Source: Escherichia phage arall
Reading direction: 5' to 3' (one strand)
DNA: 64,000 bases
Sequence record: MN850584.1
Positions 46,606 through 50,101 of the stretch are shown here, in pieces; the first letter of the stretch is position 1, and each line of letters begins with the position of its first letter. The notes beneath the pieces are model-generated. The model made no database searches and was not told the DNA's origin. It worked only from the letters and a program-made list of their open reading frames with translations. The position numbers and the translations under genes were made by a program.

Positions 46606-46716
46606 ATGTCTACAGAAATTATTTTTGGCTTATCTGTTTTTATTGCTATTGTATCTTTTGTATGCGGTTATACATTAGGGTACAGATCAAGAAAAAATAT
46701 TGTAAAAACTAGTTGA
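46606..46716 (+). CDS. small membrane protein (36 aa)
   Basis: RBS AAGGAAACAG; hydrophobic IIFGLSVFIAIVSFVCGY; below track cut-off. Confidence 0.3.
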   Translation: MSTEIIFGLSVFIAIVSFVCGYTLGYRSRKNIVKTS

Positions 46717-46742
46717 CAACATAGCTAGTTATTTGCTAAGAT
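46713..46742 (+). promoter_or_regulatory. sigma70-like promoter (TTGACA-N18-TAAGAT)
   Basis: hexamers upstream of gene at 46772. Confidence 0.4.
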
Positions 46743-46771: not shown

Positions 46772-47038
46772 ATGACAGAAAAGACTTATGGTAAAGAATT
46801 GATTGAGAAGCACGTATTGATTGATAATAAAGGTGGAGCAATCTTTATTTTTGAACCTGAATCAGTTCTTACTGAAAACGAAAATGGTAGCGTTAGCCTT
46901 AAAACAGAAAGTTTGGTAATTGACTTCCTTGCTCTTCTGGATGAAATGGGGCTTCCTCACGAAGAAGAAGCAGCTATTGCTTTGATTGCAGTTCTTCTGG
47001 AGAAACGCGAAGCTGGTGAAATGACCCAGTATGCTTAA
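46772..47038 (+). CDS. hypothetical protein
   Basis: 88 aa; RBS AAGGAGAAAA. Confidence 0.55.
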   Translation: MTEKTYGKELIEKHVLIDNKGGAIFIFEPESVLTENENGSVSLKTESLVIDFLALLDEMGLPHEEEAAIALIAVLLEKREAGEMTQYA

Positions 47039-47045
47039 TATTCAA

Positions 47046-47121
47046 GGTTCCATAGCTCACTGACGAGAGCGCACACCTCATAAGTGTCGAGGGCAGGGAT
47101 TGTAACCCTGGGGAACCACCA
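47046..47121 (+). tRNA. tRNA-Met/Ile2 (anticodon CAT), non-canonical T-loop ATTGTAA
   Basis: hand-folded cloverleaf: acceptor GGTTCCA/GGGAACC (one A.G), D-arm GCTC-ACTGACGA-GAGC, anticodon loop CTCATAA, T-stem CAGGG/CCCTG, CCA encoded. Confidence 0.55.
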
Positions 47122-47152
47122 TTTAAAAGGAGGTGCTATGCATCTCCTATAT

Positions 47153-47238
47153 GCAAGTGTGGTGGAATTGGTGATACACATTGTGCTTAAAACGCAACGC
47201 TTAAATGCTTGAGGGTTCGAATCCCTCCACTTGCACCA
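47153..47238 (+). tRNA. tRNA-Leu (anticodon TAA)
   Basis: acceptor GCAAGTG/CACTTGC, anticodon loop CTTAAAA, long variable arm, T-loop TTCGAAT, CCA encoded. Confidence 0.75.
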
Positions 47239-47240
47239 AC

Positions 47241-47346
47241 GCCTAGTAGGGTATTTGGTAATTCCGAGGCCATCAAAGCCTGAAAAATATGTTAGACCGC
47301 TTTGTCTAACTAAATACGAAATATGGTTCGATTCCATAACTAGGCT
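47241..47346 (+). other. atypical over-long tRNA-like gene (106 nt)
   Basis: perfect 7-bp acceptor GCCTAGT/ACTAGGC and canonical T-arm TATGG-TTCGATT-CCATA, but about 30 nt too much between them, including a 7-bp hairpin GTTAGAC-CGCTTT-GTCTAAC. Confidence 0.35.
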
Positions 47347-47379
47347 TCAATTTAAATAGTAATTTTAGTAAAAAATATC

Positions 47380-47408
47380 TTGACATTTACTTAGTTTTTT
47401 GTTATAGT
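47380..47408 (+). promoter_or_regulatory. sigma70 consensus promoter (TTGACA-N17-TATAGT)
   Basis: near-consensus hexamers ending 12 nt upstream of tRNA-like gene at 47420. Confidence 0.55.
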
Positions 47409-47419
47409 CGTTATGAAAA

Positions 47420-47501
47420 CGGGGTGTATCTCACCTGACTTCTAATCAGGCGTTAACCGAGTAATTGGAGTATGCAGGTTCGAATCCTGTCACCCCGGCC
47501 A
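47420..47501 (+). other. atypical tRNA-like gene with anticodon hairpin TCT (Arg-type) and no recognisable D-arm
   Basis: perfect acceptor CGGGGTG/CACCCCG + CCA, T-arm GCAGG-TTCGAAT-CCTGT, anticodon arm CCTGA-CTTCTAA-TCAGG; only 7 nt (TATCTCA) where D-arm should be; 23-nt variable region with GNRA-capped stem. Confidence 0.4.
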
Positions 47502-47519
47502 AAAAGTTTTAAAAACTAC

Positions 47520-47549
47520 TTGACAAGCAAGATAGTTTTATGTTAGATT
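47520..47549 (+). promoter_or_regulatory. sigma70-like promoter (TTGACA-N17/18-TTAGAT)
   Basis: hexamers upstream of tRNA-Ser. Confidence 0.4.
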
Positions 47550-47564
47550 TAAAGTATGATAACT

Positions 47565-47654
47565 GGAAGGTAGGGCGCAGCGGTGCGCAACCAGGTTTGA
47601 ACCCTGGCCCATTGTAGCGATACGGTGATGGTTCGACTCCATTATCTTCCTCCA
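47565..47654 (+). tRNA. tRNA-Ser (anticodon TGA)
   Basis: acceptor GGAAGGT/ATCTTCC, anticodon arm CCAGG-TTTGAAC-CCTGG, long variable arm, T-loop TTCGACT, CCA. Confidence 0.7.
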
Positions 47655-47660
47655 AATTCA

Positions 47661-47825
47661 ATGAGTGATTTTATGAATTATAAAACTATTGGACAGGTTG
47701 TTACCGGAGTTAAGATTGTAAATAATAAAGTTGTTTATGAGTATTCTAATCTTCAACAATCTGAAGATGGTAAGAATATTCGTATGGTAAAAGCAGAACA
47801 AAAAGATTCCGGTTGTTTTGAATAA
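47661..47825 (+). CDS. small hypothetical protein inside tRNA cluster
   Basis: ORF track 47625..47825 trimmed to first ATG after tRNA-Ser 3' end; no clear RBS. Confidence 0.3.
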   Translation: MSDFMNYKTIGQVVTGVKIVNNKVVYEYSNLQQSEDGKNIRMVKAEQKDSGCFE

Positions 47826-47833
47826 TTAAGAAC

Positions 47834-47919
47834 GGTAGATTGGTGAAATGGTAGCCACAACAGTTTGCTAAACTGTCGTCGGAAACGGCGTGTAGGTTCA
47901 AGTCCTACATCTACCGCCA
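47834..47919 (+). tRNA. tRNA-Ser (anticodon GCT)
   Basis: acceptor GGTAGAT/ATCTACC, anticodon loop TTGCTAA, long variable arm, T-loop TTCAAGT, CCA. Confidence 0.7.
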
Positions 47920-48054
47920 AGTTATCTTTAATGTAGCTTGTAATCTTACTTTAGCAGAGTAAATCTTCGGCAAGTGGCGGTAACCACTTTACCGATACCC
48001 CAATACTTCATAGCTAAGTGCCGCAAACACTGGCTATTTTAAAGATAATTTTAT

Positions 48055-48129
48055 ACATCGTTAGCCAAGCGGTAAGGCACTTGACTTTTAATCAAGGGAG
48101 CGAAGGTTCGAATCCTTCACGATGTACCA
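48055..48129 (+). tRNA. tRNA-Lys (anticodon TTT)
   Basis: acceptor ACATCGT/ACGATGT, D-arm GCC-AAGCGGTAA-GGC, anticodon loop CTTTTAA, T-loop TTCGAAT, CCA. Confidence 0.75.
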
Positions 48130-48134
48130 AACAC

Positions 48135-48221
48135 GTAGGTATCGCATAGCGGCAATTGCTGGAGACTGTAAATCTCCTGCCCTTCTGGGCTTCGTTGGTT
48201 CGAGTCCAACTACCTGCACCA
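48135..48221 (+). tRNA. tRNA-Tyr (anticodon GTA)
   Basis: acceptor GTAGGTA/TACCTGC (U2.G71), anticodon arm GGAGA-CTGTAAA-TCTCC, long variable arm, T-loop TTCGAGT, CCA. Confidence 0.7.
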
Positions 48222-48228
48222 AATTAAA

Positions 48229-48313
48229 GATGGATTGGCCTAGTGGTTGGGCGACGGACTGTTAATCCGTGAACGAAAGTTCTAGCAAGGTTCAAATCCT
48301 TGATCCATCGCCA
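48229..48313 (+). tRNA. class-II (long variable arm) tRNA with anticodon GTT (Asn codons) in a Ser/Tyr-like body
   Basis: acceptor GATGGAT/ATCCATC, 3-bp D-stem GCC/GGC, anticodon arm ACGGA-CTGTTAA-TCCGT, 15-nt variable arm GAACGAAAGTTCTAG, T-loop TTCAAAT, CCA. Confidence 0.5.
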
Positions 48314-48320
48314 GAATTAT

Positions 48321-48397
48321 GGACTTGTAGAGTTAAGGTAAAACCCCAGTCGCCAAGAGGCTTCTGGAATTGCAGGTATCGAATCCTGTCGAGTCCA
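48321..48397 (+). pseudogene. degenerate tRNA-like element (possible tRNA pseudogene)
   Basis: acceptor-like GGACTTG/CGAGTCC and T-arm-like GCAGG-TATCGAAT-CCTGT (8-nt loop); no D-arm or anticodon arm found. Confidence 0.3.
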
Positions 48398-48403
48398 AGT
48401 ATT

Positions 48404-48478
48404 GCTCCTATCGTATAACGGCTATTACGGTTGCCTTGTAAGCAACTTATCAGGGTTCGAGTCCTTGTGGGAGCACCA
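48404..48478 (+). tRNA. tRNA-Thr (anticodon TGT)
   Basis: acceptor GCTCCTA/TGGGAGC, anticodon arm GTTGC-CTTGTAA-GCAAC, T-loop TTCGAGT, CCA. Confidence 0.75.
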
Positions 48479-48495
48479 ATTTTAACTCTAAAGGA

Positions 48496-48825
48496 GTGTA
48501 TGTGACAGAAAAAGAGTTAGAGAAATATTTTAATATCAATGTTTTCGATGGTTTTGATGATATTGAAGATGTTGAAAGATATTATGAAGTAGAGTTAGAT
48601 AAGGATAACATTGTAATTCTTTCTGCCACTTATGATTGTGCATATTATGAAGGTGAATCTCACGTTTATTTTTATGATATGAAAACATCTTTGTTTTATG
48701 AAGTACACGCATATCATTGTTCTTGTTATGGTTTAGAAGGTCAGTGGGAACCTGAAGAAATAGGTGATTTGGATTTTACTATTGCATATCTAAACAGACG
48801 TGGTGCATCTACTATTTTAAAATAA
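48496..48825 (+). CDS. hypothetical acidic protein inside tRNA cluster
   Basis: 109 aa; GTG start at RBS AAGGAG (alternative GTG 48502). Confidence 0.5.
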   Translation: MYVTEKELEKYFNINVFDGFDDIEDVERYYEVELDKDNIVILSATYDCAYYEGESHVYFYDMKTSLFYEVHAYHCSCYGLEGQWEPEEIGDLDFTIAYLNRRGASTILK

Positions 48826-48839
48826 ATATCAAAAGCCTC

Positions 48840-48869
48840 TTGACAAAGTGGCTAATAATATGTTAGAGT
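48840..48869 (+). promoter_or_regulatory. sigma70-like promoter (TTGACA-N18-TAGAGT)
   Basis: hexamers upstream of tRNA-Gly. Confidence 0.4.
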
Positions 48870-48880
48870 AATATTGTTAA

Positions 48881-48955
48881 GCGGGTATAGTGTTAATTGT
48901 AGCATATGAGGTTTCCACCCTCCAGGTGCAGGTTCAAGTCCTGTTACTCGCTCCA
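48881..48955 (+). tRNA. tRNA-Gly (anticodon TCC)
   Basis: acceptor GCGGGTA/TACTCGC, anticodon loop TTTCCAC, T-loop TTCAAGT, CCA. Confidence 0.65.
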
Positions 48956-49302
48956 AGATTATTTAAATGGAATCGCTAGAGAAAATTTCTCTTTTCGCTC
49001 ATGGTTTTCTCCTTCAAACTCTAGCGGTTCTTTTTAAGTGATTTTTAGTTTATTGGAGATTCACTGCCTTAGTATGAGCTAAAATCGAGGAGCCATCGAA
49101 CTGTCTGATTAATGATTTGCGAATCATTATAGTTTTAAGACCCCGGCAGTTTTATGGTGTACCTCTTGAATGTGAATGATGACGGGTTTATGGTTATCCT
49201 GGTCGTTAAATATCCAAAAACCTATGTTCCCCTTGATGGCTTGCGCAGGCAATGCCAATAAGTCCTGCATTTTCATTTAAAAGAGAATTTATAATGGAAA
49301 AA

Positions 49303-49380
49303 GATGAACTTAAGTATGCTAAGCCTCTGGCTTCTGCTGCACGAAAAGCAGTTCGTCACTTTGTGGTAACACTGAAGTAA
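49303..49380 (+). CDS. very small ORF (25 aa) in structured noncoding stretch
   Basis: ATG 9 nt after AAGAGAA; MEKDELKYAKPLASAARKAVRHFVVTLK; speculative. Confidence 0.2.
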   Translation, partial: DELKYAKPLASAARKAVRHFVVTLK

Positions 49381-49385
49381 TTTAT

Positions 49386-49460
49386 TGGAGATTAGCCTAG
49401 TGGGAAGGCAACGGCCTTTGAAGTCGTGATGACTAGGTTCGATTCCTAGATCTCCAGCCA
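49386..49460 (+). tRNA. tRNA-Gln (anticodon TTG)
   Basis: acceptor TGGAGAT/ATCTCCA (U1-A72), anticodon arm ACGGC-CTTTGAA-GTCGT, T-loop TTCGATT, CCA. Confidence 0.75.
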
Positions 49461-49467
49461 AGATTTA

Positions 49468-49543
49468 CAGTGCGTAGCGCAGTTGGTAGCGTGGGAGCTT
49501 TGGATGCTTCGGGTCGCAGGTTCGAGTCCTGCCGCACTGACCA
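49468..49543 (+). tRNA. tRNA-Pro (anticodon TGG)
   Basis: acceptor CAGTGCG/CGCACTG (C1-G72), anticodon loop TTTGGAT, T-loop TTCGAGT, CCA. Confidence 0.75.
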
Positions 49544-49548
49544 AATTT

Positions 49549-49623
49549 GCAGAGATAGCTGAGACGGATTAGTGCTACCCTGAAAAGGTAGAAAGGATGG
49601 ATCGTTACCATCTCTCTGCACCA
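49549..49623 (+). tRNA. tRNA-Phe (anticodon GAA), non-canonical T-loop ATCGTTA
   Basis: acceptor GCAGAGA/TCTCTGC, anticodon arm CTACC-CTGAAAA-GGTAG, T-stem GATGG/CCATC, CCA. Confidence 0.6.
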
Positions 49624-49700
49624 AATAACACCATCCAAGGAGTAGACTTGGTTAACTGTCAATAGCACATTGAGGCTTCTTACAGTGGTGTACTTATTAT

Positions 49701-49785
49701 GGCTAAGTGGTGGAATGGTATACACGATACGCTTAGAACGTATTGCCCCAAGGGATTGTGAGTTCGAGTCTCACCTTAGCTACCA
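49701..49785 (+). tRNA. tRNA-Leu (anticodon TAG)
   Basis: acceptor GGCTAAG/CTTAGCT, anticodon arm ATACG-CTTAGAA-CGTAT, long variable arm, T-loop TTCGAGT, CCA. Confidence 0.7.
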
Positions 49786-49800
49786 AATTATTACAGATTG

Positions 49801-49879
49801 TGCGGGATAGAGGAGTCTGGTCGTCCTCGCCAGTTTCATATGCTGGAGATCATCGGTTCAAATCCGATTCCCGCCTCCA
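49801..49879 (+). tRNA. tRNA-Met/Ile2 (anticodon CAT)
   Basis: acceptor TGCGGGA/TCCCGCC (1-72 mismatch), D-arm GAGG/CCTC, anticodon arm CCAGT-TTCATAT-GCTGG, T-loop TTCAAAT, CCA. Confidence 0.6.
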
Positions 49880-49956
49880 ATAAATACCTCCCTTCTGGTG
49901 TAATGATTAAATTGCATTGACACTTCAAGGAACTCATAGCCGGGTAGATTTAAAAG

Positions 49957-50020
49957 AGTATGGTACTCAATATGGCTCCAAACCATAGATCAAGGGGTTC
50001 GATTCCTCACCTTGCTGCCA
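49957..50020 (+). other. short (64 nt) tRNA-like gene with anticodon hairpin CCA (Trp-type), no D-arm
   Basis: anticodon arm TATGG-CTCCAAA-CCATA, T-arm AGGGG-TTCGATT-CCTCA, 3' CCTTGCT-G-CCA pairs with AGTATGG (6/7); only 7 nt (TACTCAA) in D-arm position. Confidence 0.35.
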
Positions 50021-50025
50021 ATTAT

Positions 50026-50101
50026 TGTGGTATCGTACAGATGGTTAGTACACTCGACCGATAATCGAGAAACAACGGTTCGACTCCGTTTACCACGACC
50101 A
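50026..50101 (+). tRNA. tRNA-Ile (anticodon GAT)
   Basis: acceptor TGTGGTA/TACCACG, D-arm GTAC/GTAC, anticodon arm CTCGA-CCGATAA-TCGAG (C33), T-loop TTCGACT, CCA. Confidence 0.65.

Follow-up and report, generated by a model that had tools for sequence, protein, structure and literature searches.

The T54-A58 pair is held to be a near-universal tertiary pair of tRNA and is built into gene finders. In the canonical T-loop, T54-Psi55-C56-R57-A58-N59-Y60, the two bases are paired with each other in trans Watson-Crick/Hoogsteen fashion, stacked on G53-C61. The closest described departures are the A54.A58 T-loops of the eukaryotic initiator tRNA and of metazoan tRNA-Ala(AGC) (Westhof et al. 2020, PMC7566577). 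In these tRNAs, R15/A48 and A54/A58 are never found apart, and position 60 is a purine; the pairs were reported to be absent from bacterial and archaeal tRNAs, and the purine-60 and altered 15-48 pair were argued to accommodate A54.A58 (PMC7566577). Two tRNA genes with a different exchange, A54 with U58, are described here from Escherichia phage arall (MN850584.1), in a window of 64,000 nucleotides (the whole stretch of DNA that was analysed, to which all coordinates refer). One has the anticodon CAT and is called tRNA(CAU) below, and the other is a tRNA-Phe. Both are probably functional phage tRNAs built on an alternative elbow, in which the 54-58 pair is exchanged and position 60 is a purine. 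Judged from sequence comparison, the A54:U58 class to which they belong is real and conserved, makes structural sense, is spread over hundreds of phage tRNAs, and matters in practice for annotation. The literature searched, which omits most subscription journals, gave no description of such a T-loop. The features of the two genes and of the cluster that contains them are as follows.

47046..47121, plus strand: tRNA gene, anticodon CAT (47079-47081), CCA end encoded; ARAGORN call tRNA-Met(cat), minimum free energy (MFE) cloverleaf, family alignment
47099..47105, plus strand: T-loop ATTGTAA of tRNA(CAU), with A54 (47099), U55, U56 (47101), G57, U58 (47103), A59, and A60
49549..49623, plus strand: tRNA-Phe gene, anticodon GAA (49582-49584), CCA end encoded; ARAGORN call, Rfam tRNA match of 49.2 bits
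49601..49607, plus strand: T-loop ATCGTTA of tRNA-Phe, with A54 (49601), U55, C56, G57, U58 (49605), U59, and A60
47046..50101, plus strand: tRNA cluster with both variant genes; 15 tRNAs by ARAGORN

The first-pass annotation of this DNA had reported swapped T-loops in two otherwise well-formed cloverleafs, and both parts of that description hold. The sequence and the ARAGORN calls placed A54/U58 loops, ATTGTAA and ATCGTTA, at exactly the same coordinates, and the MFE fold of each gene is a cloverleaf with a 7-nt loop (z = -2.3 and -2.9). Each gene has a 7-bp acceptor stem, a 4-bp D-stem, a 5-bp anticodon stem, and a 5-bp T-stem, with a 7-nt anticodon loop containing U33. The tRNA(CAU) gene has the layout GGTTCCA TA GCTC ACTGACGA GAGC G CACAC CTCATAA GTGTC GAGGG CAGGG ATTGTAA CCCTG GGGAACC A CCA. 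Its acceptor stem GGTTCCA/GGGAACC contains an A7.G66 mismatch (47052/47111), its T-stem CAGGG/CCCTG occupies 47094-47098 and 47106-47110, and its D-loop ACTGACGA places C15 at 47060, G18 at 47062, and A19 at 47063, with G48 at 47093. The Levitt pair is C15-G48, and the docking pairs are G18-U55 and A19-U56. The tRNA-Phe gene has the layout GCAGAGA TA GCTG AGACGGAT TAGT G CTACC CTGAAAA GGTAG AAAG GATGG ATCGTTA CCATC TCTCTGC A CCA. It combines a D-arm GCTG-AGACGGAT-TAGT, with G13.U22, U21, and G15, a 4-nt variable loop ending in G48, and a T-stem GATGG/CCATC at 49596-49600 and 49608-49612; the docking bases G18, G19, U55, and C56 are present, and the 15-48 pair is G15.G48. No TTCRA motif occurs in either gene, so no register gives a canonical T-loop. 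A minus-strand reading of the tRNA(CAU) gene, in which ATTGTAA becomes TTACAAT with T54 and A58, was rejected: the arms are in the wrong order, the anticodon is ATG, and the fold is no better. That strand gave a weak cmscan alignment to a plastid untranslated region family (19.8 bits).

The 75-nt tRNA-Phe gene was at least 99% identical in 54 phage records found by BLAST, from Justusliebigvirus genomes. Diverged copies were found in the T5 relatives Epseptimavirus and Novosibvirus, in Acinetobacter phage Mithridates, Bacillus phage Bc431v3 (Herelleviridae), the T4-like phage EcS1, and Citrobacter phage Tr1, among others; the gene is also present in Straboviridae and in further Stephanstirmvirinae phages. 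Eight relatives were fetched, in which compensatory changes separate the acceptor and anticodon stems and the D-arm TAGCTGAGAYGGATTAG is kept. The T-arm GGWTGG-ATCGTTA-CCAWC is kept in seven of them; the eighth, from a Klebsiella Mydovirus, has the acceptor stem and D-arm of the window copy with the loop TTCGATA, both positions having changed together.

To avoid bias, IMG/VR was scanned for this family with the D-arm pattern alone, which is blind to the T-loop. The scan gave 84 distinct well-formed viral tRNAs, with mostly GAA and a few GAT, GCA, and TTT anticodons. At positions 54/58 these tRNAs carry A/U (38), U/A (27), C/A (13), A/A (3), G/C (2), and G/A (1), and neither U/U nor A/C was found among the 84. 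ATCGTTA is the commonest T-loop of the family (37 of the 84 distinct viral members). In the gap-free alignment of 86 sequences (A1), 96.5% of the cells are paired; shuffling lowers this to 64%, and sliding the partners to 30-48%. Changes on both sides were counted in 625 cells (184 expected), a value as high being reached in 0 of 500 shuffles. Every acceptor, anticodon, and T-stem pair covaries except the invariant G53-C61, and the 54:58 pair is AU in 45 sequences, UA in 23, GC in 2, and other in 16. Near-identical tRNAs differ by a double change at 54 and 58 in at least four lineages (loci L010 and L022 against L065, L030 against L045/L116, L066 against L069, and L056 against L077), from which it follows that switching between the two states happened repeatedly. 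The A/A members adjoin both the U:A and the A:U states, which suggests a route from U:A through A:A to A:U. Position 60 is A in all 41 A54:U58 members of the family, compared with 33 of 101 U54:A58 members. The family also has an invariant core consisting of G13.U22, U21 (normally A21), A46, and G15.G48 (normally R15-Y48), which is the same with either T-loop and recalls bacterial tRNA-Cys.

Relatives of the tRNA(CAU) gene were collected using a combined anticodon-loop and T-arm pattern, CTCATAA-N12-13-GGATYGTAACC, which replaced a D-arm pattern that had given 14 viral hits, mostly unrelated. A search through the neighbouring open reading frame (ORF; 46772-47035) gave 3 near-identical loci only and was of no use for conservation. 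The pattern is biased to A54/U58/A59/A60, and its hits were left out of the statistics. It matched 93 viral stretches with 63 distinct sequences, several of which have the D-loop type of the window, ACTGGYGA. In the alignment of nine family members (A2), 94.4% are paired, the stems covary, and 12 pairs changed on both sides. The pair A54:U58 is present in all nine, as is a purine-purine mismatch (A.G or G.A) at 7:66. The 19:56 pair is G-C in eight members and A-U in one, from the phi92 lineage, with both sides changed; among the 93 viral pattern hits, T at 56 is confined to this lineage, and A19 is likewise unique to it. The swapped Levitt pair C15-G48 is a trait of the tRNA(CAU) family as well.

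Among phage records (Justusliebigvirus), 49 have a tRNA(CAU) gene with 100% identity and 55 one with at least 98.9%. In two of the six records with one mismatch, the difference is in the flank in one and at the already unpaired position 27 in the other. Both genes are thus essentially invariant in about 55 Justusliebigvirus genomes, between flanks that vary, and the loops do not look like a strain artefact. The covariance-model check that had been proposed for both genes gave a divided result. Against the Rfam tRNA model (RF00005, gathering threshold 29 bits), tRNA-Phe scored 49.2 bits, with its cluster neighbours at 47-74 bits, whereas tRNA(CAU) gave no match even at E <= 10 in a 106-nt search. 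The tRNA(CAU) homologues of Salmonella phage SSBI34 and Erwinia phage FBB1, both with the T-loop ATCGTAA, scored 44.6 and 42.5 bits, respectively. Because the change from G19-C56 to A19-U56 is compensatory and the gene is invariant in about 55 genomes, the low-scoring copy appears to be still selected as a folded tRNA.

The class was then surveyed with ARAGORN on all fetched loci (2.1 Mb viral and 0.86 Mb cellular) after the removal of every search target, which left 3,416 distinct bystander tRNAs. Their 54/58 combinations were T/A (3,285), A/T (72), A/A (25), C/A (14), and other (20). The partner of T58 was A54 in 72 of 73 cases and C54 once; T54 never occurred, and this absence is not a detection effect, because ARAGORN would find T54/T58 more easily than A54/T58. 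Over 20 anticodons are represented among the 72 A54:U58 bystanders, with Lys(UUU), His, Ile(GAU), Asp, and CAU in the lead, and these tRNAs have the loop consensus A-U-C-G-U-N-R. A purine at position 60 was found in 60 of the 72 A54:U58 loops (83%), compared with 77 of the 3,285 canonical ones (2.3%), an odds ratio of about 200 (Fisher 2e-77, phylogeny ignored), and a Levitt pair other than R15-Y48 in 31 of 72 compared with 549 of 3,285 (2e-7). An earlier clustering at 80% identity had given purine-60 in 80 of 92 clusters; it still contained the CAU tRNAs picked by the search pattern, which itself dictates A60. The A54:U58 loops keep U55 (71/74), C56 (73/74), G57 (70/74), and the D-loop GG (70/74).

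The share of the variant among bystanders was 61 of 1,701 (3.6%) in viral contigs and 11 of 1,738 (0.6%) in genome loci, a roughly sixfold difference between two biased samples. The genome loci, reached by the D-arm scan, are large tRNA arrays from Acidobacteriota and Planctomycetes; in these arrays, the Phe family is T/A in 87 of 111 tRNAs and A/T in 9. Loci L149-L268 (GTDB genome contigs) hold 1,835 distinct tRNAs in 858 kb, mainly from Pyrinomonadaceae/Blastocatellia and Planctomycetes. Within a cluster the variant is always in the minority, with 1-5 tRNAs and a maximum of 5 of 12; it accounts for 2 of 15 in the cluster of phage arall. A genome-wide loop replacement by a phage that destroys all canonical host tRNAs was rejected on these grounds.

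From these results, the earlier view that the loops are a real structural variant and not decay is borne out: A54:U58 is the commonest state of the Phe family, is fixed in the CAU family, and has repeatedly changed places with U54:A58 by a double change. Two further statements of the first-pass annotation stand in part. The same swap is indeed present in both genes, but it does not represent two independent events here, each gene having inherited it with its family. The bases at 54 and 58 are exchanged as it described, but the exchange is not isolated, being coupled to purine-60, often to an odd 15-48 pair, and in tRNA(CAU) to A19-U56.

The explanation proposed is an internally compensated elbow. 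The intraloop pair under G53-C61 would be retained with its bases exchanged, A54 pairing with U58 and not U54 with A58, and would be accompanied by a purine at position 60, giving the consensus A54-U55-C56-G57-U58-N59-R60. Since U55, C56, G57, and the D-loop GG are conserved, the loop should still dock on the D-loop and preserve the L-shape; in tRNA(CAU), the docking pair has also been exchanged, from G19-C56 to A19-U56. The purine-60 and the altered 15-48 pair may serve to accommodate the exchanged 54-58 pair. The geometry of that pair may be reverse-Hoogsteen with the strand roles exchanged or of the Watson-Crick type, the latter being favoured by the rare G54/C58 members. Evolution may have proceeded from U54:A58 with A60 through A54:A58 to A54:U58; all three states exist in the Phe family, and U54:U58 never occurs. 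As position 54 is A and not uridine, the modification m5U54 (ribothymidine) is chemically impossible, and the first-pass annotation was sound in stating that such tRNAs would lack it. TruB recognition depends on conserved T-loop bases and is probably impaired in A54:U58 tRNAs.

Both genes are predicted to be ordinary decoders. The tRNA-Phe would read UUY and tRNA(CAU) most probably AUA after lysidine formation (otherwise AUG), and both may top up the tRNA pool of an AT-rich phage (37% G+C), whose codon use includes 8.0 AUA and 47 Phe codons per 1000. Bacterial initiator tRNA-fMet has an unpaired 1:72 position and three G-C pairs at 29-31:39-41 with the Gs on the 5' side. The tRNA(CAU) gene has neither trait, since G1-C72 is paired and the anticodon stem CACAC/GTGTC contains no GGG/CCC, and on these grounds it does not look like an initiator. 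IleRS recognises tRNA-Ile2 by the CAU anticodon, by A37, A38, and A73, and by U12-A23 and C29-G41, and the pairs C4-G69 and C5-G68 serve TilS discrimination against tRNA-Met. The window copy and its relatives all have U12-A23, C29-G41, A37, A38, and A73; the window copy also has C5-G68, but T4-A69 where eight of the nine family members have C4-G69. The gene looks Ile2-like because of these five elements and of C4-G69 in the relatives. The label 'tRNA-Met' that had been given to 47046-47121 is therefore questionable, and an Ile2-type tRNA that reads AUA after lysidine formation appears more likely. Lysidine (k2C34) was reported on a vibriophage tRNA(CAU) (PMC13191261). A second tRNA with a CAT anticodon at 49801-49879 is the likelier Met or fMet tRNA. 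It has a 5-bp D-stem GAGGA/TCCTC, the T-loop TTCAAAT, and a 3' end ...GCCTCCA, and the boundary between its acceptor stem and T-stem and its CCA register are ambiguous.

Several points weigh against functional tRNAs on an exchanged, compensated elbow. The covariation counts take no account of phylogeny, and A/C, G/G, and C/A also occur at 54/58, so that Watson-Crick complementarity is not the whole rule. The loci were picked for these families, which makes 2-4% a biased rate for phages, and default ARAGORN missed the A54:U58 tRNA-Phe in 5 of 10 named loci (L008, L010, L012, L013, and L022); the class frequencies are rough because the program under-calls the class. The window copy of tRNA(CAU) escapes the Rfam tRNA model even at E <= 10, is unpaired at 27:43 and 7:66, and carries T4-A69 in contrast to C4-G69 in its relatives; within its family, it may be a weakened copy.

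The alternative that survives best, itself unlikely, is an adaptive 'stealth' elbow, in which A54:U58/R60 was selected for turning particular phage tRNAs into poor substrates for a T-loop-reading factor of the host or of a competitor, either a defence or toxin tRNase or the host enzymes TrmA/TruB. In its full form, doubtful to the same degree, the A54:U58/R60 loop, often with an altered 15-48 pair, would be a distinct, positively selected elbow of mobile-element tRNAs, orthogonal to host T-loop readers and possibly resistant to a hypothetical tRNase, of a defence system or a competitor, specific for the canonical elbow. If true, these tRNAs would be unmethylated by TrmA and poorly handled by TruB, and an elbow route would be added to the anticodon-loop escape route. 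The sixfold excess of the variant in bystander tRNAs of viral contigs and a T-arm sequence unusually conserved across unrelated phages are consistent with such selection. The tRNAs in which the variant is seen again and again are Phe(GAA), CAU, Lys(UUU), and Ile(GAU), a set resembling that cut by a bacterial Schlafen tRNase, namely Lys(UUU), Met(CAU), Val(UAC), Phe(GAA), and Ile(CAU) (PMC13056530). In addition, phage tRNAs escape anticodon nucleases by mutation (PMC10264068, PMC11464382, PMC11555353), and Cas12a3 contacts the T-arm (PMC12851939). However, no defence nuclease reading bases 54/58 was reported in the anti-phage tRNase papers examined. The cleavage sites given there are in the anticodon loop/arm, the variable loop, or the CCA tail; cleavage by the Schlafen enzyme is at 30/31 (PMC13056530), and Cas12a3 touches the T-arm backbone only (PMC12851939). 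The affected isoacceptors are A/U-rich decoders that AT-rich phages most often encode, and in every cluster most phage tRNAs keep the canonical loop. Moreover, closely related phages of the same hosts carry either tRNA-Phe state (Stitch versus the T5-like loci L065 and L092), so that the exchange looks near-neutral. The coexistence of both Phe states in close relatives and the persistence of canonical neighbours fit near-equivalence of the two loops better than a strong sweep.

The earlier suggestion that the swapped loops might escape T-loop-recognising host nucleases finds no support here, given that only 1-5 tRNAs per cluster carry the variant, that their neighbours keep TTCRANY, and that the tRNases described in the papers examined cut elsewhere. 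The terms 'T-loop', 'T-arm', and 'elbow' are absent from the main text of the eLife paper on phage tRNA escape. The tRNA-Lys and tRNA-Tyr of T5 were considered as a source of experimental support and set aside, as both have canonical T-loops in the fetched T5-like loci.

Decay of one or both genes to pseudogenes is improbable. In its favour, the phi92 record lists the tRNA(CAU) gene as a 'hypothetical tRNA' and flags tRNA-Phe as a pseudogene; the tRNA(CAU) gene is invisible to the Rfam tRNA model, has two unpaired stem positions, and lacks G19; and several truly degenerate tRNA-like elements lie in the cluster. Yet the score of tRNA-Phe is within the range of its neighbours, and compensatory evolution is evident in its family from one phage family to another, with Gram-negative as well as Gram-positive hosts. 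The tRNA(CAU) gene is invariant in 49 genomes between varying flanks, one further genome being changed at the unpaired position 27; its loss of G19 is matched by the change of C56 to U56, and the 7:66 mismatch is a family trait (9/9) and not damage. Least credible is that the genes encode tRNA-shaped RNAs that do not decode (serving as operon processing punctuation, to terminate or stabilise the RNA after ORF 46772-47038, or as decoys of a tRNA-binding protein): the tRNA(CAU) element scores poorly as a tRNA and starts 8 nt past the stop codon of that ORF, followed by a hairpin, with a terminator annotated there in one record, but the anticodon loops are tRNA-like (C32/U33, A37, A38), each family keeps its anticodon unchanged, both the discriminator A73 and a CCA end are encoded, and the homologues lie mid-array among tRNAs and not after ORFs.

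Over the 3.3 kb around both genes, the identity is 99.7% with Escherichia phage AV123 and 97% with phi92 (Justusliebigvirus, Stephanstirmvirinae). Of the 15 ARAGORN calls in the cluster, 13 have the canonical T54/A58 and two (CAU and Phe) have A54/T58, and the tally is the same for phi92-type loci. A host origin of the two tRNAs was rejected, since a comparison with 5,426 complete E. coli genomes gave no match to either gene. A consensus scan of the cluster gave several promoter-like sites (TTGACA-N17/18-TAnnnT, with TG upstream), of which two bear on the variant genes.

46713..46742, plus strand: promoter-like site TTGACA, 18 nt, TAAGAT, with TG; upstream of ORF 46772-47038; consensus scan only
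48840..48869, plus strand: promoter-like site TTGACA, 18 nt, TAGAGT, with TG; heads the block Gly ... Gln-Pro-Phe-Leu-Met-Ile; consensus scan only

Given its position, tRNA(CAU) may be co-transcribed with ORF 46772-47038, and the site at 48840..48869 is a putative promoter of the tRNA block that it heads. The cluster is a mixture of good, variant, and decaying tRNAs. An unannotated tRNA-like element at 47241-47346 combines a canonical T-arm (ATGG-TTCGATT-CCAT) with the acceptor arms GCCTAGT/ACTAGGC and carries an insert, about 35 nt long, that contains a hairpin GTTAGAC...GTCTAAC; it was called by ARAGORN only with introns allowed, as Asn(gtt) with an 18-nt intron, and had no Rfam match. The element at 47420-47498 matched the Rfam tRNA model with 38.6 bits and was not called by default ARAGORN; its D-arm region is apparently truncated, an extra stretch precedes its T-arm, and a near-consensus promoter, TTGACA-17-TATAGT, lies just upstream at 47380-47408. 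A degenerate tRNA-like gene at 48320-48398 has an 8-nt T-loop, TATCGAAT, and was called by ARAGORN only at the 80% threshold, as Leu(caa), and the element at 49943-50020 is a degenerate, weak Trp(cca) with 22.9 bits against Rfam. Four records named 'Campylobacter phage' (MG065639, MG065645, MG065656, and MG065689; host C. jejuni) are 96.6% identical to this cluster over 3.2 kb, and their host label looks doubtful.

Many GenBank phage records have no feature at the tRNA-Phe gene or a wrong one, such as 'tRNA-Leu' in VEcB and 'HNH endonuclease' in SUT_E1620. Since variant genes are under-called, phage tRNA repertoires and codon-compensation analyses are biased. A widespread inverted 54/58 pair with coupled changes at 60 and 15-48, and with A19-U56 in one lineage, would represent a second viable solution of the tRNA elbow, and the states U:A, A:A, A:U, and G:C at 54/58 offer a natural series for structural work. 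The class would also provide ready-made tRNAs unable to carry m5U54, useful for studying the in vivo role of T-loop modification and recognition and whether any immune nuclease reads the elbow.

Compared with the canonical T-loop, the variant has the same 5-bp T-stem closed by G53-C61 and a 7-nt loop, keeps U55, C56, G57, and the G18/G19 partners in the D-loop, and shows covariation of 54 and 58. It differs by A54/U58, by the lack of U54, by a purine at 60 in 83-100% of loops as opposed to a pyrimidine in about 98% of canonical ones, and, in tRNA(CAU) of the window, by A19-U56. Bacterial tRNA gene arrays share the Phe-family D-arm, with A54:U58 in the minority there, whereas A/T is the commonest state in viral contigs (38/84). 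The described escape tRNAs (van den Berg 2023, PMC10264068; PARIS/T5 tRNA-Lys, PMC11464382; retron Eco7/T5 tRNA-Tyr, PMC11555353) are likewise phage-encoded, depart from the host consensus at conserved positions, and sit in clusters of large lytic phages; unlike A54:U58, their changes affect the loop or stem of the anticodon, at the sites of nuclease cleavage. The eukaryotic A54.A58 loops resemble the phage variant in A54, in purine-60 (A60 in both genes), and in an unusual 15-48 pair, and their trio of features also occurs here in 25 distinct phage or array tRNAs with A54.A58, of which 23 have a purine at 60 and 16 a purine-purine 15-48 pair. The two genes of phage arall differ from the eukaryotic loops in having U, and not (m1)A, at position 58, and G15.G48 (Phe) or C15-G48 (CAU) in place of R15/A48. 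As U58 makes a purine-pyrimidine pair with A54, the phage loops should lack the long C1'-C1' distance of 12.5 A found in A.A.

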